64,000 nt of DNA from positions 20,294 through 84,293 of IMG/VR virus record IMGVR_UViG_2974694605_000001; one strand, given 5' to 3'. The notes beneath the pieces were generated by a model. It was not told the origin of the DNA. It saw only the letters and a list, made by a program, of their open reading frames with translations, and did no database searches. This stretch comes from a virus. This document shows, one piece after another, positions 1,965-20,481 of the stretch. Each line of letters begins with the position of its first letter. Position 1 is the first letter of the stretch. Position numbers and translations under genes: made by a program.

Positions 1965-2267
1965 ATGGCAAACATTACTATCGAAACACGAAACGAATCA
2001 TTCGAAGAAATTCTTGCAACAATTGGAGAGCGACAACGTGTAGTTGTTGACTACTTGGAAGCATTTGACGAACCTTTATCGGCAAGTGAAATTGCATATG
2101 GTTTATATATTAATGGACTTGTTCCAACACCTGAACGTAATTCAGTACATCCTCGCTTAACAGAATTGACAAAACTTGGAATTGTCCATGTAGTTGGTAA
2201 AAGAAAAGACCAAGTGACAAATCGAAAAGTTGCGGTCTATGAATTAGTGGAGGAAGCTCGACAATGA
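1965..2267 (+). CDS. winged-helix DNA-binding protein
   Basis: GGAGG RBS before ATG 1965; LSASEIA...RNSVHPRLTEL...GIV pattern typical of wHTH. Confidence 0.7.
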   Translation: MANITIETRNESFEEILATIGERQRVVVDYLEAFDEPLSASEIAYGLYINGLVPTPERNSVHPRLTELTKLGIVHVVGKRKDQVTNRKVAVYELVEEARQ

Positions 2268-2509
2268 AAAAACTTAATGCAAATCAAACAATTCCAACAA
2301 ACATTGTGAAATACTTAAACGGAGTCAATCATAATGAGTATGAAAGTGTAGTTGATGCATTCATTGAATCATACGATGACTGGACATTACCTGATGAACT
2401 TAATGATTTCTGCAAAGATATCAAGAACTTTCACTTATGTGTAATCTACTTGCTAGATAGCGAAAGGTCATTACATATGTTTGAGAATGGAGAACAATAT
2501 GTATCCTAA
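2264..2509 (+). CDS. hypothetical protein
   Basis: ORF track, ATGA overlap with upstream gene. Confidence 0.65.
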   Translation: MKKLNANQTIPTNIVKYLNGVNHNEYESVVDAFIESYDDWTLPDELNDFCKDIKNFHLCVIYLLDSERSLHMFENGEQYVS

Positions 2510-2681
2510 ATTTATTGTAGTGGAAGTATATCAACATGAAATCAAAAAGTCTTACTGGAAACTAAAAATTCTTGAAGGCAAAAGTAAATTGTGGGAAGAT
2601 TTCACATACTTTAGATATAATAACTGGATGGATGCCAATTATTATTTACAAACATCAAAAGAAATTAGAGGTTTAAAATGA
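2499..2681 (+). CDS. hypothetical protein
   Basis: GGAG RBS before ATG 2499. Confidence 0.55.
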   Translation: MYPKFIVVEVYQHEIKKSYWKLKILEGKSKLWEDFTYFRYNNWMDANYYLQTSKEIRGLK

Positions 2682-2821
2682 AAACAAGCCACGAGATTTT
2701 AGCAACATTAGTGTTCTTCATTATATTATTTGTGATGAAGATGATTGCAGGATTTGAATATGCAGTACTTTTTGGTTTAGCGGTTGCCATTGCTAAAGTA
2801 ATTAAGCATGGAGATAAATAG
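2678..2821 (+). CDS. small membrane protein (47 aa)
   Basis: read by eye: MKTSHEILATLVFFIILFVMKMIAGFEYAVLFGLAVAIAKVIKHGDK; ATGA coupling. Confidence 0.55.
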   Translation: MKTSHEILATLVFFIILFVMKMIAGFEYAVLFGLAVAIAKVIKHGDK

Positions 2822-3065
2822 TAAGGAGAGATATATGTTAACAGATGTACTATGTCCTAAATGCTCAAAATTCATTGGACATAAAATTGATTATGCAGAA
2901 TATGAGGGATGTAACGATGTAGTCGAATTGGAAGCACGTGATTTTGTATGTGAGTGTCCTTATTGTGATACTAAGTTTATATTTAATCTTTACGTAAAAT
3001 ATTCAGCAACAAATGCACGAATTGATGAAAAACGCGTAGAAGAAGCGGAAAATGGAGATTATTAA
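2808..3065 (+). CDS. small Zn-ribbon protein
   Basis: CPKC...CPYC. Confidence 0.65.
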   Translation: MEINSKERYMLTDVLCPKCSKFIGHKIDYAEYEGCNDVVELEARDFVCECPYCDTKFIFNLYVKYSATNARIDEKRVEEAENGDY

Positions 3066-3442
3066 TGAATAACTACAACGAACCAATTAAATATGAAGTT
3101 GGTAAAGAGATTTACTTAGTACCTAGCGATACTCGTAATAAGCCTTATTCTGCTAGAATTACAAAGGTTGGTCGAAAATATGCTTATGCTGGAACAATTT
3201 ATAAAGGTTGGGATAAGTTTGGACGAGATTTTAAAATTGAAATTAAAAAAAATAGAACATCTGTAGAATATGGTAGCACAGATGATGTATATGAGAGTGA
3301 AGCTATTTACGAACAATATCTCAAAAATAAAGCATTGCAATACCATATTTCCAAACAATTAAATTCTAAAATATTTGATTCTAATACATTGGAAGTTATT
3401 GCAGAAGTGATTGGTTTGGAAAGTCAGGTGGAAATTAAATGA
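3065..3442 (+). CDS. hypothetical protein
   Basis: TAATG coupling; ITKVGRKY motif common in phage small proteins. Confidence 0.7.
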   Translation: MNNYNEPIKYEVGKEIYLVPSDTRNKPYSARITKVGRKYAYAGTIYKGWDKFGRDFKIEIKKNRTSVEYGSTDDVYESEAIYEQYLKNKALQYHISKQLNSKIFDSNTLEVIAEVIGLESQVEIK

Positions 3443-3747
3443 GACAAATAACTCAAATTGTAATCATGAATCCATACTTTGAAAAAACCTATACAACCAT
3501 CATTCCTCTTTGGTTTTTACGGAGGGTGGAACAGCAATCAATGCGTGAAATTGGTTGTGTAGAAGTAATGGCAATAGATGAATTATCTCCACAAGATGCG
3601 TTTCTACTACGCTATAGCTCAGATAAATGTAGCGCTGTAGAACTCCATGAACTGGAAATTACAGAAGATGAGTATCAAAAATATTTCCAAAGAGGATTTG
3701 ATAAACGTCAATATGGAACTGATGATACTTATTACTACGATTATTAA
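3439..3747 (+). CDS. hypothetical protein
   Basis: ORF track, ATGA coupling. Confidence 0.65.
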   Translation: MRQITQIVIMNPYFEKTYTTIIPLWFLRRVEQQSMREIGCVEVMAIDELSPQDAFLLRYSSDKCSAVELHELEITEDEYQKYFQRGFDKRQYGTDDTYYYDY

Positions 3748-3756
3748 GGAAAAAAT

Positions 3757-3987
3757 ATGATTAAATGTAAAATTACACCTTACGCTACTAAAGGGTATTA
3801 CTCTCCCTATTCAGGAAATTGGTATGGTGGAATCGGATATGATGTTAAAGTAAAAACAGGCAATAAGTTTACAATAAACTTTAAGCCTTATAAAATAGTC
3901 AATTATTTTTCAAGTTATTCAGAAGCACTACAGTACTTGGATAAAAAATTAGAAGGATATACAGATGGGAAAGTTTTTAAAATTTAA
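3757..3987 (+). CDS. hypothetical protein
   Basis: AAGGA RBS. Confidence 0.6.
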   Translation: MIKCKITPYATKGYYSPYSGNWYGGIGYDVKVKTGNKFTINFKPYKIVNYFSSYSEALQYLDKKLEGYTDGKVFKI

Positions 3988-4285
3988 ACAGTTCTGGTGT
4001 GGTCACTTTGCTCTTGGTCATCGTGGAAGTGTAGATGGCTTCGAACTGAATGTCACATGGCTTTCACACAATAAAAAGGTTGAAGTTGAAATCACAAATA
4101 AGTGTGTAAAATGTGGTGCAGAAACTTTAGTGTATCTTGGATTTTTAACCCCCTCAGAATACGTCAGATTCAATTCTAAGCATCTTTTTGACAAATTTGT
4201 CCAAACATATGCTGATGAGCGTGTGTATGACCATATGGTCATCTCAGAGGGCATTAAAAAGGATAAGCGAGTAAGAAAGATATAA
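3965..4285 (+). CDS. hypothetical Zn-binding protein
   Basis: FWCGH...CVKCG. Confidence 0.6.
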   Translation: MGKFLKFKQFWCGHFALGHRGSVDGFELNVTWLSHNKKVEVEITNKCVKCGAETLVYLGFLTPSEYVRFNSKHLFDKFVQTYADERVYDHMVISEGIKKDKRVRKI

Positions 4286-4322
4286 AATAAGAATTTTATA
4301 TATGGTTAAGAATAGTTAATAT

Positions 4323-4351
4323 TTGACAAAGTAAAATTAATTTGATATAAT
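4323..4351 (+). promoter_or_regulatory. sigma70-type promoter
   Basis: TTGACA-17-TATAAT. Confidence 0.85.
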
Positions 4352-4375
4352 AGTGTTGTGAAAGAGGTAATAACA

Positions 4376-4645
4376 ATGTATAACGCAACCTTTAGAGAAA
4401 GACCACTAAGAACAAATGCACCAACGCAACCGACTAAGGGAGAAATGAAGATGAAAGTATATGTTTTAACAGCCGATACGTATAATGGACCTTGGGGTTC
4501 AGAAATAGAATTTTTCGGAGTATTCTCAACAAAAGAGAAAGCTCAGAAGCGAGCTAGTGAAATGAAATTAGATTGTCCTGATATTTCTGTTGTGAATGTT
4601 GATGAAAATGATGTACAAGGCTACTTAGGAGGGTATTACGAATGA
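4376..4645 (+). CDS. hypothetical protein (alternative start 4451)
   Basis: GAGG RBS at 4376; second RBS before MKVYVL...FGVFSTKEKA. Confidence 0.6.
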   Translation: MYNATFRERPLRTNAPTQPTKGEMKMKVYVLTADTYNGPWGSEIEFFGVFSTKEKAQKRASEMKLDCPDISVVNVDENDVQGYLGGYYE

Positions 4646-4875
4646 AAATTTTGAAACGTAAACCAAAGAAATTAATTCAAGCAAGGTTTATTTATGATAC
4701 GAGCCGTATCGGAGTTAATAATAACTATTCTGATTGGCAAACCGTTACTGAAAAAGAATTTCAAAGTGCTATAAATACACTTGATGGTTGGTCTAGTAAT
4801 CAGTTCATCGCTCTAGGAAACTTGGTTAGAAATCGTTACGATATTAACGGATTTGAAAAAAGGGAGATTGAATGA
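4642..4875 (+). CDS. hypothetical protein
   Basis: ATGA coupling. Confidence 0.6.
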   Translation: MKILKRKPKKLIQARFIYDTSRIGVNNNYSDWQTVTEKEFQSAINTLDGWSSNQFIALGNLVRNRYDINGFEKREIE

Positions 4876-5054
4876 AACTTTTGTGTAAGCTGTTCGGGCA
4901 TAAGTGGTCTGAACGAAGATATATCGAAGGACCATTTCTTAATGGGTGCAAAGTATTACCATATAAACGATGCTTGAGATGCAATGAGTTAACATGGGAT
5001 TTCAACCGCTCAGACCTTGACGAGTCAGAGAACGTGCGAGGGGAGAAGAAATAA
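4872..5054 (+). CDS. DUF1660-like small Zn-binding phage protein
   Basis: MKLLCKLFGHKW...RCLRC. Confidence 0.7.
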   Translation: MKLLCKLFGHKWSERRYIEGPFLNGCKVLPYKRCLRCNELTWDFNRSDLDESENVRGEKK

Positions 5055-5207
5055 ATGAATGAACCATTAAAAAATCGTATTTTAAGAAAATTAAAGCAGT
5101 TATTCTGTTTTAATCATGATTGGCATGTTTGGGTAAATAAAAAAAATAGAACTTGTCGAAAATGTGATAAAACAGAAAAAGATTTTAACCGCTTAGACCC
5201 TCATTAG
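5055..5207 (+). CDS. DUF1660-like small protein (50 aa)
   Basis: read by eye: LFCFNHDW...TCRKC...DFNRLD; GGGAG RBS. Confidence 0.6.
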   Translation: MNEPLKNRILRKLKQLFCFNHDWHVWVNKKNRTCRKCDKTEKDFNRLDPH

Positions 5208-5239
5208 TCTGAAAGTGTGTTTAAGAAAGGAATACGGAA

Positions 5240-5575
5240 ATGAATAAATTAATTGAAAAATATATTTTAACAATTATTGCACTTGTTCTCGATATTTTGT
5301 CTATGGTAATCACAATTTTAACGCTTAATTTAAGTTGGAATCATTTTATCGTGCCAGCTTTTCATGCTCCAAAACTAGGATTCATATTAACATTTGCAAT
5401 TGTGGTGATGTGGGAGTTATTTGCCTTTAGGGTAGAGAATACAGGAATTACAACTCTCTTATCTAAAACTACAAATACACCCAACGAACAGATTGCAGTT
5501 GAGTATGCGGTAACCAATGTAATGGTTTCATTGATAATTGGATTAACTCTTTTAGTATTAAGCTTATTTATTTAA
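5240..5575 (+). CDS. membrane protein (about 3 TM segments)
   Basis: AAGGA RBS; hydrophobic segments. Confidence 0.7.
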   Translation: MNKLIEKYILTIIALVLDILSMVITILTLNLSWNHFIVPAFHAPKLGFILTFAIVVMWELFAFRVENTGITTLLSKTTNTPNEQIAVEYAVTNVMVSLIIGLTLLVLSLFI

Positions 5576-5596
5576 ACTATCTAATGATAGTTTTTT
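5574..5596 (+). terminator. intrinsic terminator
   Basis: AAACTATC/GATAGTTT + T run. Confidence 0.65.
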
Positions 5597-5598
5597 AT

Positions 5599-5627
5599 TT
5601 GACTTTTGAGTTATATTATGATATAAT
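5599..5627 (+). promoter_or_regulatory. sigma70-type promoter
   Basis: TTGACT-17-TATAAT. Confidence 0.8.
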
Positions 5628-5656
5628 ATATATTATAGAACATAAGGAGAATTTAA

Positions 5657-5914
5657 ATGGATAAGAAACTTGAGACAATCAATGAACGCATTCAACAATT
5701 AGCAGAACTGTATGAATGTCAAATGGATGTAGTTCTATCTAAAAATGACAAGGAAGAGTTATTTCAAATTTACTTAGAATATCAAAAAGAGAGTGCAAAA
5801 ACAAAGAGTTCAAGAATGATATATTTGGCACGAAGCTCTGGGAACACTAATCTTCTAAGACATTTTGGTATTTTTGAAATGTTTGAATACATGGAGGCAA
5901 AAAATGGAAAGTAA
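5657..5914 (+). CDS. hypothetical protein
   Basis: AAGGAG RBS. Confidence 0.7.
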   Translation: MDKKLETINERIQQLAELYECQMDVVLSKNDKEELFQIYLEYQKESAKTKSSRMIYLARSSGNTNLLRHFGIFEMFEYMEAKNGK

Positions 5915-6140
5915 AGAAATATTTACCAAAGCACAACTATCAATCTATCGAAACTTGCTTATTATATGGATGAATAATTCAAATCTAAGATTTAATCAAC
6001 TTATATCTAATCTTCAAGTAGATTTTAATAATCAGCAGTTTAGAAAATACTCACGTAGTGATGGAACACCAGATTTATTCTATTTGAGTGATGAAGAGTT
6101 CGCAGAATTTTTAGAAGATTTAATAGAGGAGAATAGTTAA
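5904..6140 (+). CDS. hypothetical protein
   Basis: GGAGG RBS before ATG 5904. Confidence 0.65.
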   Translation: MESKEIFTKAQLSIYRNLLIIWMNNSNLRFNQLISNLQVDFNNQQFRKYSRSDGTPDLFYLSDEEFAEFLEDLIEENS

Positions 6141-6433
6141 TGGAATATGGAAAAACATTTGTACACAATGGATTAAAATACCAGCGCTCAGAGGACACGG
6201 TTCTCTTTACACTTAGAAATAAAAACAACCAATACATTGGAATTGATTTAGGTCGTAATGGTAATGAATTTGTTATTGGAAAGACCGTTTTAACAACAAG
6301 TGACGAAGCATTTATCTTTATGATGGATAAAGAGATTTTTGAAGAAAAGGGAATCTCTAACACAATTGCTATGCTACGTAAAGAGGCTAGTAATAAAATG
6401 AACTATGCAGGATTTAAGCCAGTCATGGTGTAA
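6140..6433 (+). CDS. hypothetical protein
   Basis: TAATG coupling, GAGGAG RBS. Confidence 0.7.
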   Translation: MEYGKTFVHNGLKYQRSEDTVLFTLRNKNNQYIGIDLGRNGNEFVIGKTVLTTSDEAFIFMMDKEIFEEKGISNTIAMLRKEASNKMNYAGFKPVMV

Positions 6434-11492: not shown

Positions 11493-11839
11493 GGGGTCAT
11501 AAATGGTATCGACAGGCTATGGCAACTTTAAATCACATTCCGACAAGGATAGTCGTTAAAACCAAAAATAAATATAATTGCAAACACTCAATTAGCCGTA
11601 GCCTAAGCTACACAAAGTTTAAGTAATTAAACAGCTAGAAACTGATTCGTCTGGTAGGTTTCTAGTACAAACAGACGTGTGATGGATTCTGATAAGTCAC
11701 AGATAACAATCAGAACAGCGTTAGTGGATAGTTGTTTATTCAAGAAACTAACAATGTCTATTAAATGAATAAACTATGAATGTAAGAAAGTTTTAAAGTA
11801 TGTATAGTTTGGACACGAGTTCGACTCTCGTTGACTCCA
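11493..11839 (+). ncRNA. ssrA: tmRNA (transfer-messenger RNA); tag (A)ANTQLAVA at 11580-11606
   Basis: 5' GGGGTCA...ATCGACAGG; 3' T-arm ACGAG-TTCGACT-CTCGT then TGACTCC-A; G3.U70 Ala determinant; resume context ATAATT|GCA; 347 nt. Confidence 0.92.
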
Positions 11840-11881
11840 TCATGTTTTTAAAACATATTTAAAAAACATATTACTTTATAC

Positions 11882-11982: not shown

Positions 11983-12070
11983 AGAGAGTTAGCTTAGTGG
12001 TAAAGACGATGACGGTGTACACCGTAAAAACGGAAAGTCATAGACAGGGGTTCGATTCCTCTACTCGCTG
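11983..12070 (+). ncRNA. tRNA-like RNA with 23-nt anticodon loop
   Basis: acceptor AGAGAGT/ACTCGCT, D-loop AGTGGTA, ATGAC/GTCAT stem with 23-nt loop, T-arm AGGGG-TTCGATT-CCTCT. Confidence 0.7.
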
Positions 12071-13309: not shown

Positions 13310-13790
13310 ACTACAGGTAGATTAGGCGTATGATATTATCCTTTGGTTTAAATCCATAAAGACAGGGCATAAAGCTCGACTGTGTGCCTATTGCATGCAA
13401 TAGATGACGGTTATATCTCGATACAATTGAAAGGAACTTTGAGTAGTTCGCCTTTATGGAAATGGGTTGTTAGTGTATACCGCACAAAGAAAACTATCTG
13501 TATCCGTTACTCTTGACGATATAAGAAGCTTAAAATCATGTTTGGTCTTTGCATATCCTTCCTAAAGACTAAGGTGTACCGATTGACGGTACTTAAATGT
13601 TATAGAGTTAACAGCCAATGGTTAACGAGTGGTAACAGTAGTTATTAAATGTTCAGCTGATGTAGTGAACAGCCAAACATATATTGGTCTTGATAGATAA
13701 TGTGAAGGTTATATTAGCTAGTCTATGATATAACTCAAAAAACTACTCGTACGGTACTCGATTTGTAGTTTGCCAATACACAGTTTGGTT
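13310..13790 (+). ncRNA. candidate large multi-domain structured RNA (about 480 nt)
   Basis: no ORF; three long-range closing stems (13312-20/13494-502, 13538-45/13673-80, 13682-87/13773-78), each enclosing several hairpins. Confidence 0.65.
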
Positions 13791-13867
13791 TCCCACTTCG
13801 TTTAAATATTGGAATAAGACTGCCTATTCGAGAACAGGCAACCTCGGTTCGATTCCGAGGGTGGGAA
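13791..13867 (+). ncRNA. tRNA-like RNA with 10-nt anticodon loop
   Basis: TCCCACT/GGTGGGA acceptor; TGCCT-ATTCGAGAAC-AGGCA; CTCGG-TTCGATT-CCGAG. Confidence 0.65.
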
Positions 13868-13895
13868 TTTAATTTGAAATATTATTACTTATCTC

Positions 13896-13924
13896 TTGAC
13901 AAACTCATTTGATTATGGTATAAT
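13896..13924 (+). promoter_or_regulatory. sigma70-type promoter
   Basis: TTGACA-17-TATAAT. Confidence 0.85.
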
Positions 13925-13962
13925 AATATATGTAAGTTAAAAAAACGTAAGGAGAACATAAT

Positions 13963-14070
13963 ATGGGGTGCTTAATTCCAATTGTATTAATTTTATTATT
14001 TCTAGCAAATCCAGTTTTGGGTTTAGTTGCAACAGCTATTGTATTAGCAATAGTAAGTCTTAAAAAATAA
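13963..14070 (+). CDS. 35-aa hydrophobic membrane peptide
   Basis: AAGGAG RBS; MGCLIPIVLILLFLANPVLGLVATAIVLAIVSLKK. Confidence 0.7.
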   Translation: MGCLIPIVLILLFLANPVLGLVATAIVLAIVSLKK

Positions 14071-14083
14071 GGAGAAAACACAA

Positions 14084-14740
14084 ATGACACAAAGCAAAAC
14101 ACTCACAGTGCAAGAAGCACTTAATGAACTTAAAGTTCTTGATAAACGTATTGAACGTAAACTTGGAGATACTAAATATGTAGGTGTTGTCCAAGAAGGC
14201 AAACTTGTTTATCCTGCATCATCAAAAGGTGATAAAGATAAATTCATTTCAGATGCAAAATCTAGTATTGATTCATTGCTTGATTTGATTGCTTATCGTC
14301 ATGCTTTGAAAGCTGGTGTATTACGTTCTAATGCGTTAACAGAAGTTGCAATTGGAGACAAAACAATGACAGTTGCGGAAGCAATTGATTATAAAACTTC
14401 AATCCAAAGTGAAAAAGATTTGGTTCAAACTCTTGTTAATGATTTGACTCAAGCAACAACTAAGGCAACACGTATTAATGAGGATATTGATAAGACTCTT
14501 GAAAAGAAACAAAATAGCTTGTTAAGCTCAGACAAAGACGATAAAAATCCTGATATTATTAAATTCTTGAAAGAACAAGCTGAGAGCGAAAAAGCAACAG
14601 TTCTTGAATTAGAAGTTGGTAAATCTCTTGTAAGTGATTACACCAAAGCTAAACTTGATTCAATTGAACAATTTGAACAAACAGTTGATTTCAAATTAAC
14701 TGCATCAAATGTTTCAACAGAAATTACCGTTGAGTGGTAA
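14084..14740 (+). CDS. coiled-coil protein with internal duplication (DIP1984/DUF6847-like by recall)
   Basis: AAGGAG RBS; twin motifs TLTVQEA/TMTVAEA and SNALTEVAI/SNVSTEITV. Confidence 0.8.
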   Translation: MTQSKTLTVQEALNELKVLDKRIERKLGDTKYVGVVQEGKLVYPASSKGDKDKFISDAKSSIDSLLDLIAYRHALKAGVLRSNALTEVAIGDKTMTVAEAIDYKTSIQSEKDLVQTLVNDLTQATTKATRINEDIDKTLEKKQNSLLSSDKDDKNPDIIKFLKEQAESEKATVLELEVGKSLVSDYTKAKLDSIEQFEQTVDFKLTASNVSTEITVEW

Positions 14741-14755
14741 TAATTAAGTTATAAT

Positions 14756-15131
14756 CATGTTATGACGAACAACTTAAAGTATAGATTTCCAGATAGTTCT
14801 GTTTTTCAGAGGTTCTTATAACTGGAAATAAATAATAAATATGACGAACCTCTTATACTATAATATAATATAAAAATATGATGAATCTCAAAAAGAGAGG
14901 TTATGTATTCAAGACGGTAAGGATGAGTCCTTATTCGTAGGAATAGATAAAAACTACTTCATAGATTATAGTTCAAAGCTCATGCTTTATAGCTTAGAGT
15001 TTATATCTTATATTGGACAATGAATCCAGTTATAGATTAAGTTTAAAGGATTAAGTTTTCTTAAAAATCCTAGAGTTACGTTTTGTGACTTTCTATATCA
15101 GTTTGGTTGTACGCTAGGCTGTCATAACATG
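14756..15131 (+). ncRNA. candidate structured RNA (about 375 nt) closed by an 11-bp terminal stem
   Basis: CATGTTATGAC (14756-66) / GTCATAACATG (15121-31); several internal hairpins; no ORF. Confidence 0.7.
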
Positions 15132-15135
15132 GTAA

Positions 15136-15168
15136 AATAAGAACAGCTTCGGTGGTTCTTATTTTTTT
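15136..15168 (+). terminator. intrinsic terminator
   Basis: AATAAGAAC...TTCG...GTTCTTATT + T run. Confidence 0.8.
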
Positions 15169-15179
15169 ATACTTTTCTC

Positions 15180-15208
15180 TTGACAAAACAAAATGGTTAT
15201 GGTATAAT
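15180..15208 (+). promoter_or_regulatory. sigma70-type promoter of topoisomerase operon
   Basis: TTGACA-17-TATAAT. Confidence 0.85.
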
Positions 15209-15242
15209 ATATTATAACCGATTGAAAGGAATGGTGTTAACA

Positions 15243-17198
15243 TTGACAGAAAAAATTAGAAAGCTGAGTAATCGTGACCAAGCTCGTGAGAAGATTGCTG
15301 TATGGTACGGTTCAGCCGACAACTACCAACATGGACTAAAAGAACTCCTAGCCAATGCAACAGATGAAATTATTAATAATTTTGAAGAGGGGACTATTAC
15401 GGTCAAGCTGAGTGAAGATGGTTCAACAGTAACTGTTACAGATACTGGTCGAGGTATTCCAATCTCAGGAGAAACTGATGGAATCCCCAACTACGAGTTA
15501 CTGTTTTTAACTCTCTTTGCAGGAACTAAGTATGGAGATAGTGGAGTAACAAATGGAACTTATACTGGTTCAAATGGTGTAGGTACTACAGTTCTTAACT
15601 ATACGTCAGTTCTTTTTGAAGTAACATCAGTTATTAAGGGAATTAAATACCATATTAAATTCACTAATGGTGGTGAAGTCACAGAGGATTTAACAGAAGA
15701 AAAAACAGATGGTATTGATGGAACAACCGTGACATTCTCACTTGACCCGACAGTTTATACAAAAACAATCTTTAAAGATGAAGATGTTCGTGAGATTGCA
15801 CACCGTTATGCTGTTAGTTCAAATAAGATTACAGTTGACTATATTCATGGAGAAACTGAATTAAAATACCATTATACAGACTTGAAAGAATATTATTCAG
15901 AACTTACAGGTGCTGTCAACACAAGTGGGATTGTCTTTGGTGATTTAGTTGAGTATCAAGATACAATTACAAGTAATCAACATGATGTTTTCACGTCTCA
16001 TGAAGAATTAACTTCTCTTTCGATTGCATTATCAACATCAACAACACCGACACAAGAATCTTACTTGAACTTAAACTACTTACCTAATGGTGGTAAGATT
16101 AACGAAGGAATTATTAATGGTATTAAACTTTACGTTAATAAATACTGTCGTGCAAATAATCTGTTTCCTAAGAAAGTCAATTCTTTTTCAGATTCAGACA
16201 TTACGGAATCATTTAGTTTTGTAGCTGTTATGTTCTCAAACAATGTTGAGTTTGCAAATCAAACTAAGTTCTCTACAAACAAAGAACTCTATAAAGAAGT
16301 TGCCAAGAGACGTGTTACACAAATCTTAGAAGTTACAGAAATTGAAGACCCTAAAAACTTTAAAGATATTATCAATCACTTATTGCTTGTGCAAAAAGAG
16401 AATACAGTCAACGCTAAACACAAAGAGAAACTTAAAAAGAAATTAACTGAAAAAGTTGACTCAATGTCTAATCGTATTGAGAAGTTAGTTGATTCACGTA
16501 TTCACGGTGAAGAAGCAGAATTGTATCTTGCAGAAGGTGACTCGGCTCATGGTTCAGTAGTTCAGGCTCGTGATAGTAAGTTCCAAGCAAGTATGCCTAT
16601 GGGTGGTAAATTCCTCAACGTTGAAAAAGCAATGAACATTGAAGATATTGTTAATAATGAAACGGTCATGAATGTAATCAAAGCTCTAGGATGTGGAATT
16701 GATTTAGGTAAGAAACAGAAAGACTTGCCTAAGTTTGATATTGAGAAGTTACGTTATGGAAAAATTATCTGTGCATCAGATGAAGACCCAGACGGTGCTC
16801 AAATTCAATGCTTGATTATCACTCTGTTTTATAAATTGATGCCAGAAATCATTCACACAGGAAGATTATATTTGGCTCAAACACCTTTGTTTCAAATCAA
16901 ACTCAAAGATGATTCAGTTCTTTATACTTATACAGATGAGGGACGTGATAAAATCCTTAAAGAACAAGGAAGTAAAGTGGTTCAATACTCACGAGCGAAA
17001 GGGCTCGGAGAATTAAATGCAAACATTATGGCTGAGACAGCAATGAACCCTGAAACTCGTCATTTAACACGTGTTACAATTGAAGATGCTAAACATGCAG
17101 AACAAGCTATCGTTGACTGGATGGGTACAAACGTAGATAATCGTAAAGTATTCATTTCACGAAACCTTAATAAATTTACTAAAGAAGGGTTAGAATAA
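15243..17198 (+). CDS. gyrB: type IIA topoisomerase subunit B (GyrB/ParE family)
   Basis: GHKL motifs ELLANATDE, DTGRGIP, GSNGVG; TOPRIM EGDSA and DEDPDG; start TTG 15243 or ATG 15231. Confidence 0.93.
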   Translation: MTEKIRKLSNRDQAREKIAVWYGSADNYQHGLKELLANATDEIINNFEEGTITVKLSEDGSTVTVTDTGRGIPISGETDGIPNYELLFLTLFAGTKYGDSGVTNGTYTGSNGVGTTVLNYTSVLFEVTSVIKGIKYHIKFTNGGEVTEDLTEEKTDGIDGTTVTFSLDPTVYTKTIFKDEDVREIAHRYAVSSNKITVDYIHGETELKYHYTDLKEYYSELTGAVNTSGIVFGDLVEYQDTITSNQHDVFTSHEELTSLSIALSTSTTPTQESYLNLNYLPNGGKINEGIINGIKLYVNKYCRANNLFPKKVNSFSDSDITESFSFVAVMFSNNVEFANQTKFSTNKELYKEVAKRRVTQILEVTEIEDPKNFKDIINHLLLVQKENTVNAKHKEKLKKKLTEKVDSMSNRIEKLVDSRIHGEEAELYLAEGDSAHGSVVQARDSKFQASMPMGGKFLNVEKAMNIEDIVNNETVMNVIKALGCGIDLGKKQKDLPKFDIEKLRYGKIICASDEDPDGAQIQCLIITLFYKLMPEIIHTGRLYLAQTPLFQIKLKDDSVLYTYTDEGRDKILKEQGSKVVQYSRAKGLGELNANIMAETAMNPETRHLTRVTIEDAKHAEQAIVDWMGTNVDNRKVFISRNLNKFTKEGLE

Positions 17199-19963: not shown

Positions 19964-20481
19964 TGGAAAAAGTTAAAATTTATTTCGCAAGCCCACTTTT
20001 CTCAGATATGGAACGTTGGTTTAATACTGATATTGTTGACAGTTTACGATACGCTCTTCCTGAAAATGTAGAGATTTATCTACCACAGGAAAATGAAGCA
20101 ATTAATGATAAGTCAGGATATGCAAACTCTGTAATGATTGCAGAAGCTGATACAAACGAACTGTTGAGTTCTGACTTTATTGTAGCTGTCCTAGACGGTG
20201 CAACAATTGATGTTGGTGTGGCTAGTGAAATTGGAGTTGCCTATGCTAAAGGCATTCCAGTTATTGGTCTGTATTCAGATTCACGTCAAGGTGCTTTTGG
20301 AAACACAAACAAAATCAACGCTCTTGAAGAGGTGGGGGAATCACAATTCTCTTATATTAATCTCTATACTGTAGGGTTAGTTAAATCTAACGGTGCTCTA
20401 TTTAAAGATGTTGGAGACTGGTTCGACTACATTGTTGACGAAGCTAAAAAATTATCAGAAGAAAAGGAAACAAATGACTAA
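19963..20481 (+). CDS. nucleoside 2'-deoxyribosyltransferase family protein
   Basis: KIYFASPLFS, PQEN, DVGVASEIGVAYA. Confidence 0.88.
   Translation: MEKVKIYFASPLFSDMERWFNTDIVDSLRYALPENVEIYLPQENEAINDKSGYANSVMIAEADTNELLSSDFIVAVLDGATIDVGVASEIGVAYAKGIPVIGLYSDSRQGAFGNTNKINALEEVGESQFSYINLYTVGLVKSNGALFKDVGDWFDYIVDEAKKLSEEKETND

Follow-up and report, generated by a model that had tools for sequence, protein, structure and literature searches.

The window analysed in this study is a stretch of 64,000 nucleotides (nt) of virus DNA (IMG/VR record IMGVR_UViG_2974694605_000001, positions 20,294 to 84,293 of that record), and positions given below without a locus name refer to this window. The window's phage is an Audreyjarvisvirus of the Lactococcus 949 group. 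Between 13896 and 15168 its plus strand holds one transcription unit, with a promoter, a gene for a hydrophobic peptide of 35 amino acids (aa), a gene for a 218-aa helical coiled-coil protein of the PHROG 1491 family, and then a region (14741-15179) in which the list of open reading frames (ORFs) has no plus-strand ORF of at least 25 aa (Table 1). This last region is the subject of the present report. It probably yields a stable, highly structured and pseudoknotted noncoding RNA (ncRNA) of about 385 nt (14752-15135), derived from the 3' portion of the transcript initiated at the 13896 promoter. The RNA and the protein gene are hardly ever found apart, either in phages of Gram-positive and Gram-negative hosts or in Bacillota chromosomes. 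An original prediction, made from the letters of this DNA alone, had described the unit as a cassette of membrane peptide, duplicated coiled-coil protein and structured RNA, and had proposed that protein and RNA are a dedicated pair. Its reading of the basic layout was accurate, as the promoter is a perfect extended consensus (12 of 12 positions) and the ORF list agrees with a 35-aa frame, a 218-aa frame and then a stretch free of ORFs.

Evidence for a structured RNA 3' of the protein gene

The region 14741-15170 folds with an energy z score of -4.69 relative to dinucleotide shuffles, and none of 100 shuffles folded as well. Its ends are joined by a closing helix, P1. An 11-base-pair (bp) helix had been proposed at 14756-14766/15121-15131; this helix is real and extends outward to the limits given in Table 1. 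Over 13700-15400 the window is 92-97% identical to phages LW81, P1048, WRP3, AM1-12, phiL47 and 949, and 68% identical to phage PMBT69, whose closing helix shows three compensatory double changes relative to the window. When P1 was anchored on its conserved flanks across the family, four to six canonical pair types were seen at each of 10 positions, a count that is partly circular because members were chosen for pairing, and for which symmetric detection and the strict-signature controls described below provide the correction.

In the symmetric detection, for which 75 diverse sequences were scored without any preference between G·U and A·C, 72 of the sequences proved to have a 10-bp P1. The non-Watson-Crick positions of these helices comprised 95 G·U, 4 A·C and 6 others. 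This excess of G·U over A·C means that the pairing is selected on the RNA of the gene strand and that a DNA palindrome is excluded. Selection thus acts on the fold at the RNA level and on the gene strand and, as judged from the compared sequences of the family, P1 covaries throughout its length.

The RNA and the protein gene occur together

Linkage was examined in a viral set of 86 loci and a bacterial set of 64 loci, about 150 in all. A strict signature, consisting of an arm of at least 9 bp, the motifs C-GAA ... GC.G and the complementary arm, was present just 3' of the gene in 54 of the 86 viral loci, whereas each of two controls had it in 1 of 86. The remaining 32 loci depart from the motif in small ways, such as U·G or U-A closing pairs, or CGGAAA or CCGACA joiners. 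An nhmmer profile of the 3' domain of the RNA matched 85 of the 86 viral loci, on the gene strand and at most 700 nt 3' of the gene, and matched nowhere else in the loci; among the bacterial loci it matched 52 of 64, also on the gene strand. The bacterial carriers include the Bacillus pumilus group, B. paralicheniformis, Brevibacillus, Exiguobacterium, Domibacillus, Clostridium and Lachnospiraceae, among others.

In the reverse test, viral contigs were scanned with a pattern for the RNA only, and 58 matches were obtained. Of these, 29 are RNAs that the profile confirmed and that have sufficient sequence on their 5' side; in every one of them the gene lies upstream, at a distance of 231-361 nt. 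Another 23 matches lack the gene; the profile shows nothing significant in them (no match, E 1.6 or, in one case, a partial match at E 0.0066), and they are chance occurrences. Six further matches lie at contig ends, and only the one in locus L217 has the RNA (profile E 5e-15), with too little upstream sequence to judge. An exact 16-mer scan of the viral contigs returned 949-group phages only, plus one chance coding match in locus L015.

Members of the family are found far from the lactococcal phages. The T5-like phage GreteKellenberger has a 443-nt gap 3' of its homologue that contains a long closing helix, with GACGAA directly after the 5' arm and CUAGGCUG directly before the 3' arm, and phage T5 carries the RNA, unannotated, after T5.085. 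A separate RNA is annotated nearby in the T5 GenBank record: rnaX, a 719-nt stable RNA of unknown function beside tRNA-Arg, lies about 1.6 kb from the new RNA (locus L176 2849-3567; AY543070 40848-41566, minus strand). In B. altitudinis and Exiguobacterium the neighbours of the module are housekeeping genes, and therefore the gene-RNA pair is not confined to prophages.

The near-constant co-occurrence of gene and RNA points to an RNA-protein module. The proposal of a dedicated protein-ncRNA pair is thereby strongly supported by comparison, since the co-occurrence is near-obligate in both directions, in phages and in bacteria, and RNA-level covariation is abundant. Homologous genes were also examined for a lack of conserved downstream structure; the structure was found, and the idea survived. 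The window itself has the features of the family, with P1 flanked by a C-GAAAAC-type joiner (GAACAAC) and by GGCUG, the helix Pa after the AAAAAUCC motif at 15063-15070, and the whole RNA 3' of a PHROG 1491 gene.

Architecture of the RNA

Inside P1, two helices of the 3' domain tie the structure together. Pa is paired in 98.9% of cells of a 75-sequence alignment and shows compensatory changes in four of its five pairs; its covariation score was 0.514 compared with 0.162 in shuffles, and none of 500 shuffles scored as high. The P2 5' strand, which lies in the joiner, pairs with GUUGU at 15106-15110 in the window, and across the family native P2 duplexes have a mean energy of -6.15 kcal/mol, compared with -3.51 (standard deviation 0.23) for cross-paired controls. 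Because the 3' strand of P2 lies inside Pa and its 5' strand lies outside, P2 crosses Pa in a long-range pseudoknot that ties the ends of the RNA. The inner 3' hairpin was only 50% paired in the 75-sequence count, in a region that is poorly aligned by MAFFT. A further helix, AGGATT/AATCCT, had been proposed here and is probably not a helix, because it overlaps the conserved AAAUCC motif, whose CC belongs to Pa.

A second pseudoknot is located near the 5' end, where S1 is formed by ATTTCCAG/CTGGAAAT and S2 by AGAGGTTC/GAACCTCT. These segments had been listed among six or more hairpins. The paired segments do exist, but the four strands of S1 and S2 interleave and therefore make one H-type pseudoknot rather than two hairpins. 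In P1048 and 949, pairing in S2 is kept while GC changes to GU and AU, and PMBT69 retains both stems with other sequences. In a position-constrained search, a compact pseudoknot of at least 10 bp was found at this fixed 5' position in 58% of members compared with 7% of shuffles. An unconstrained pseudoknot search could not tell real sequences of this A/U-rich RNA from shuffled ones.

The interior is made up of a variable insert and a repeat array. The insert has other hairpins in phage 949 and in locus L024 and is mostly missing in PMBT69. Accordingly, the hairpin TATTC..TAAGGA-TGAG-TCCTTA..GAATA (14902-14949) noticed in the original prediction is present in the window but belongs to this variable part, with another hairpin in 949 and L024 and none in PMBT69. 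True tRNA genes lie inside the variable region of L050 (2698-2770, Ser-tga) and L081 (2767-2840, Ile-gat), so that in its mature form the RNA may consist of two pieces joined by P1, P2 and Pa. The inserts of L100, L086 and L087 contain a YrlA-like tRNA mimic that scores 35, 33 and 27 bits, respectively, all below the Rfam gathering score of 69. The array has a family consensus of roughly K-U-Y-A/C-A-A-R, derived by expectation maximisation. Over about 130 nt 5' of the AAAUCC motif the family shows a 7-nt periodicity (autocorrelation z=21 at lag 7, z=17 at lag 14 and z=10.7 at lag 21), and none was found in the control region.

The PHROG 1491 protein

The 218-aa protein matches phrog_1491 with E 1.8e-68, its residues 4-218 covering positions 2-211 of the 211 in the profile. 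Homologues of 27-38% identity occur in 722 phage records, including T5-like Salmonella and Escherichia phages and Vibrio, Pseudomonas, Klebsiella and Bacillus phages. In a protein library the family forms 3430 clusters at 50% identity, and nearly all members among the 150 listed are 203-228 aa long. No Pfam or NCBIfam match was found at E up to 1, no nuclease family was matched in Pfam or PHROG, and a PDB sequence search returned nothing meaningful.

The AlphaFold (AF2) model is confident (pLDDT 87) and consists of bundled helices and small beta elements that follow a two-fold beta-alpha...alpha-beta pattern. The protein had been described as two similar halves. This stands at the level of motifs (KTLTVQEALN and KTMTVAEAID) and in the two-fold pattern of the model, but the internal duplication is not significant by BLAST (E 0.11). 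A resemblance to DIP1984 and DUF6847 proteins had also been suggested, and a weak similarity of fold and features is indeed seen, as the best PDB match in Foldseek is 3kdq, a DIP1984-family protein of C. diphtheriae (E 0.011, probability 0.97), an AFDB 'Septicolysin' cluster matches at E 6e-3, and DUF6847 is found in the ESM Atlas at 0.86. The TM-scores of these structural neighbours are low (0.31-0.41), and sequence models do not support the relationship.

PHROG labels the family 'tail fiber protein', and RefSeq carries this label on. Nothing was found in support of a tail-fibre role: the gene is surrounded by tRNA, early and replication genes, homologues occupy chromosomal sites that are not prophages, and the model shows a short bundle of helices and no fibre domains. 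No proteomic evidence for such a role was found. The present finding corrects a mis-annotation that has been propagated.

The transcription unit in the window

PMBT69 has an equivalent promoter directly 5' of its own 218-aa homologue. A second, equally perfect promoter at 15180-15208 drives the next unit, which encodes a GyrB-like topoisomerase. The strong terminator of the original prediction is partly borne out, in that the hairpin and U-run fold and their pairing is kept in relatives, but a strict terminator scanner passed over the hairpin. Bacterial members of the family likewise finish with a hairpin and a U-run.

The peptide ORF is found in the 949-group phages and in L024, and is missing from PMBT69 and from every distant locus examined. 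The peptide is thus a lineage-specific passenger that lies outside the conserved module, and its inclusion as a membrane anchor of the cassette is not supported.

tRNAs and several other RNA-like elements lie upstream. The window has a phage transfer-messenger RNA (tmRNA) at 11493-11842 (109.6 bits in Rfam; ARAGORN tag ANTQLAVA), and a tmRNA is likewise found 5' of the module in L024 and L031. At 11983-12070 there is an 88-nt Rfam tRNA match (36.6 bits) without an ARAGORN call, which could be a tRNA that carries an insertion or has one loop enlarged. Just 5' of the cassette promoter, at 13791-13870, is a tRNA-like element with a 7-bp acceptor stem, a canonical T-arm (GGTTCGATTCC) and an odd anticodon region; it was called neither by ARAGORN nor by Rfam at the gathering threshold. 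Phage 949 carries a transposase gene between this element and the cassette promoter (L002 1713-2831; NC_015263 47780-48898), which has no counterpart in the relatives.

Table 1. Positions in the window of the parts of the transcription unit and of the predicted RNA
Feature	Position	Strand	Details
Sigma-70-type promoter	13896..13924	+	TTGACA-17-TGgTATAAT, TG extension, 12/12 consensus positions
35-aa hydrophobic peptide ORF	13963..14070	+	phrog_9039 (E 1.4e-18)
218-aa helical coiled-coil protein ORF	14084..14740	+	PHROG 1491 family
P1 closing helix	14752..14766 (5' strand), 15121..15135 (3' strand)	+	14-15 bp
Joiner GAACAAC	14767..14773	+	Family consensus GAAAACC; 14769-14773 is the P2 5' strand
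P3 5' strand GUAUAGA	14779..14785	+	Pairs with 15092-15098; lengthens P2 in the lactococcal subgroup; one compensatory change relative to PMBT69
5' H-type pseudoknot	14785..14853	+	S1 14785-14792/14822-14829; S2 14808-14815/14846-14853
Variable insert	14854..14959	+	Hairpins 14886-14898 and 14902-14949
Heptad array	14960..15062	+	About 11 repeats of A-U/A-A-G-N-U-Y, interrupted by a small hairpin (15012-15030)
3' domain	15063..15118	+	AAAAAUCC motif; Pa 15069-15073/15114-15118; hairpin 15075-15089; P3 3' strand 15092-15098; P2 3' strand 15105-15110
Conserved CU of GGCUG motif, then P1 3' strand	15119..15135	+	
Intrinsic-terminator-like hairpin and U-run, unit end	15139..15168	+	Predicted fold; pairing survives changes in relatives

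Genomic surroundings of the module

tRNA genes lie within about 2 kb of the module in 55 of the 86 viral loci, and all 254 of these tRNAs are on the gene's strand. In two Clostridium loci (L029 3622-5633 and L030 3617-5624) the module is followed by Ro60 (TROVE and vWA domains), a YrlA-like RNA (36-41 bits) and RtcB. The order in these two, C. saccharoperbutylacetonicum and a related contig, is a WYL-like regulator (WYL/WCX-type), a 206-aa protein, the module, Ro60, YrlA and RtcB. In L158, from another Clostridia metagenome-assembled genome, a WYL-like gene precedes the module and RtcB lies directly 3' of the RNA.

Other neighbours recur as well. An 830-905-aa YonO-like polymerase lies upstream on the same strand in 23 loci, including L129 (679-3393) and L127 (51-2546), and this protein matches the eukaryotic-type RNA-dependent RNA polymerase fold PF05183 with E 3.4e-8. 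PIN-PhoH and HU-like genes are also found repeatedly near the module. These neighbours probably mark one phage lineage and not the function of the module. Among tRNAs downstream of the module, a RAGATH-33 RNA was seen in L012 (5876-6002; 121.8 bits, above threshold) and a DUF3800-XI RNA in L013 (4688-4737; 44.3 bits).

Expression

The expression data are assembled contigs from public runs of mixed strains, in which breaks can be assembly artefacts and depth is a poor measure. Contigs from wastewater metatranscriptomes cover both the gene and the RNA, and one 382-nt metatranscriptome contig corresponds to 14747-15132, which coincides with the ends of P1. In one wastewater cDNA library, contigs from the interior of the RNA (14824-15047) had a k-mer depth of 2000-6200 compared with 58-125 on the flanks. 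This is suggestive of a stable and abundant RNA.

Discussion

The explanation favoured in this study is that the RNA and the PHROG 1491 protein act jointly as a putative ribonucleoprotein (RNP). The ends of the RNA, with P1, the P2/Pa pseudoknot and the 5' pseudoknot, would form a compact core that shields the RNA. The single-stranded array of about 10 heptads could serve as a multivalent platform for an oligomer, by analogy most simply of the co-encoded protein with its two similar halves. The particle may work in tRNA or RNA-damage biology; this role is suggested because the module sits in phage tRNA clusters, because tRNA and YrlA-like mimics are embedded in some of the RNAs, and because three Clostridia operons with RtcB, with or without Ro60-YrlA, contain the module. 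For this explanation as a whole, meaning the RNA family, the RNP with the protein and the role in tRNA or RNA damage, a probability of roughly 0.6 is given. A more specific version is put forward only tentatively. It would be a new class of RNP in which a DIP1984-like coiled-coil oligomer is assembled on a heptad RNA with a double-pseudoknot core, serving as a Y-RNA-like platform for surveillance and repair of tRNA or RNA damage and, in phages, shielding translation from host defences that cleave tRNA or other RNA. Such a class would span large virulent phages (T5-like, Vibrio, Bacillus, Lactococcus 949-like and others) and Bacillota chromosomes.

Several caveats weigh against this explanation. 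The link to RNA repair comes from 3 of about 150 loci and three sub-threshold YrlA matches, and it is weakened by the housekeeping surroundings in B. altitudinis and Exiguobacterium. The recurrent YonO-like, PIN-PhoH and HU neighbours may reflect shared phage ancestry rather than function. No recognised RNA-binding domain was found in the 218-aa protein in the Pfam search, and 12 of the 64 bacterial loci gave no match to the RNA profile. Additionally, the expression evidence is weak, being drawn from mixed-strain contigs with a poor measure of depth, and to this is added the partial circularity of the P1 pair-type count.

The alternative that survives best, although it is unlikely, is that the RNA is a cis-acting element of the 3' untranslated region (UTR) whose only role is to stabilise or autoregulate the upstream mRNA, for instance through the protein binding its own 3' UTR, and that it has no function as a separate RNA. 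This would fit with the position of the RNA, which is always 3' of the gene on the same side of the transcript with a terminator after it, and with the lack of a conserved promoter of its own, as a TATAAT at 14750-14755 is missing in PMBT69. However, two pseudoknots and a heptad array kept from T5 to Bacillus go far beyond known 3' stabilisers. The RNA also carries whole tRNAs or tRNA mimics, which RNase P and RNase Z would cut out, and the interior cDNA depth was 30-100 times that of the gene, which is weak evidence from one library.

It is also improbable, and to a slightly greater degree, that the RNA is a machine in its own right, either self-assembling like GOLLD and ROOL or acting as a ribozyme, with the protein as a co-transcribed chaperone or an unrelated neighbour. 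As with GOLLD and ROOL, tRNA genes adjoin the RNA in large phages and a tRNA can be embedded in it, and a preprint describes GOLLD and ROOL as forming RNA-only assemblies (bioRxiv 10.1101/2024.12.08.627333). What stands against this is that the linkage of gene and RNA is near-absolute in both directions and in very distant hosts, and that the pair moves as a unit in chromosomal sites that are not phage. Linkage of this kind is hard to explain without a joint function.

A lower likelihood still is assigned to the RNA being a decoy or sponge, whose heptads would titrate a host factor (an endoribonuclease, an anticodon nuclease or an Hfq-like chaperone) as a counter-defence while the structured ends protect it. 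Phage tRNA and tmRNA genes have been associated with escape from defences that target tRNAs. A decoy would agree with the A/U-rich single-stranded motif and its repetition, with the location among phage tRNA and tmRNA genes and with the enrichment of the module in large virulent phages, but the same module is found at ordinary Bacillus and Exiguobacterium chromosomal sites without phage genes, which argues for a cellular function. Finally, a DNA-level element beside the topoisomerase genes, either an iteron replication origin or a miniature inverted-repeat transposable element, would match the AT-rich sequence, the direct and terminal inverted repeats and the replication genes next door in the 949 group, but is very improbable given that G·U exceeds A·C by 95 to 4 in the helix (one-strand RNA selection), that the orientation is always that of the gene with a single copy per genome window, and that the neighbourhoods are wholly different in T5, Bacillus and Clostridium.

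The finding matters in several ways. To our knowledge, only a few kinds of large structured RNA with unknown function exist, and every new one, as with OLE, GOLLD, ROOL and raiA, has led to research of its own. Here the obligate small protein partner gives an immediate biochemical handle, and the module is present in tractable organisms, namely the model phage T5 and strains of the Bacillus pumilus group. It is also widespread, as shown by the roughly 3400 clusters of the partner family at 50% identity and the 722 phage records with a homologue. The position in tRNA clusters, the embedded tRNA and Y-RNA-like modules and the RtcB/Ro60 operons bear on why large phages carry translation-related RNA genes, and the module bears as well on how large phages withstand tRNA-targeting immunity.

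Comparison with known systems

Rfam 15, whose families include GOLLD, ROOL, YrlA, tmRNA, OLE, raiA and HEARO, gave no match in 14741-15170 even at E up to 10, and no match to the RNA in the corresponding gaps of 30 related loci from phages and bacteria at permissive thresholds, which is consistent with the suggestion that this is an undescribed system. No description was found in the literature on T5 ncRNAs, GOLLD/ROOL-like RNAs, PHROG 1491, DIP1984/septicolysin or the 949-group phages. With neither an Rfam match nor a published description, the RNA is rated as a new class that has its own dedicated protein partner. In general terms, large ornate RNAs next to phage tRNAs, and RNAs whose protein partner is encoded alongside, are already represented by GOLLD, ROOL, OLE and the Y RNAs.

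On the protein side, the best structural neighbours are the DIP1984, 'septicolysin' and DUF6847 proteins, which are all uncharacterised helical proteins, whereas the 218-aa protein is longer, has a two-fold repeat and has no sequence-model match. Type III toxin-antitoxin systems of the ToxIN/AbiQ kind have tandem RNA repeats of about 34-36 nt beside an endoribonuclease toxin gene. They were considered and set aside, as the repeat period here is 7 nt, no nuclease family is matched, and the RNA is 3' of the gene inside a closed structure. Nothing was found to support the RNA-neutralised toxin that had been offered as one possible reading of the cassette. HutP binds UAG triplets every 7 nt, and TRAP binds GAG or UAG every 5 nt, with each protein subunit taking one short motif; such short triplets at a fixed period resemble the (A/U)AG-containing heptads, an analogy of RNA pattern only. 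The protein folds are unrelated, and the HutP and TRAP systems are 5' attenuators and not stable 3' RNAs.

OLE, with OapA, OapB and OapC, is similar in being a large structured Bacillota RNA with adjacent genes for partner proteins, with which it forms an RNP. It differs in that there is no similarity of sequence or structure (no Rfam match), its partner is a membrane protein whereas the partner here is a soluble coiled-coil, and the present module is phage-borne. The likeness to Y RNAs (YrlA and YrlB with Ro60) lies in a long stem of the 5' and 3' ends that encloses modular inserts and in the pairing of an RNA with a dedicated protein. Additionally, three members of the new family hold a YrlA-like mimic, and the Clostridium modules are directly upstream of Ro60-YrlA-RtcB. 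However, the partner is not a TROVE/Ro60 ring, the new RNA is much larger, and no Ro-binding helix was seen in it. A Ro60 homologue was found only in L029 and L030 of the about 150 loci and not beside the window RNA, which itself has no YrlA or tRNA match and no tRNA-like module.

GOLLD and ROOL are large ornate RNAs of Lactobacillales and their phages. Like the new RNA, they are hundreds of nt long with multiple pseudoknots, lie beside tRNA genes in phages and prophages, have a variable region that can hold a tRNA, and are of unknown function. We know of no obligate adjacent protein gene for either of them. The new RNA is smaller (about 250-430 nt) and has no Rfam match to either model, and it is set apart by its heptad array, by its obligate adjacent protein gene and by its occurrence in phages of Gram-negative hosts such as T5.

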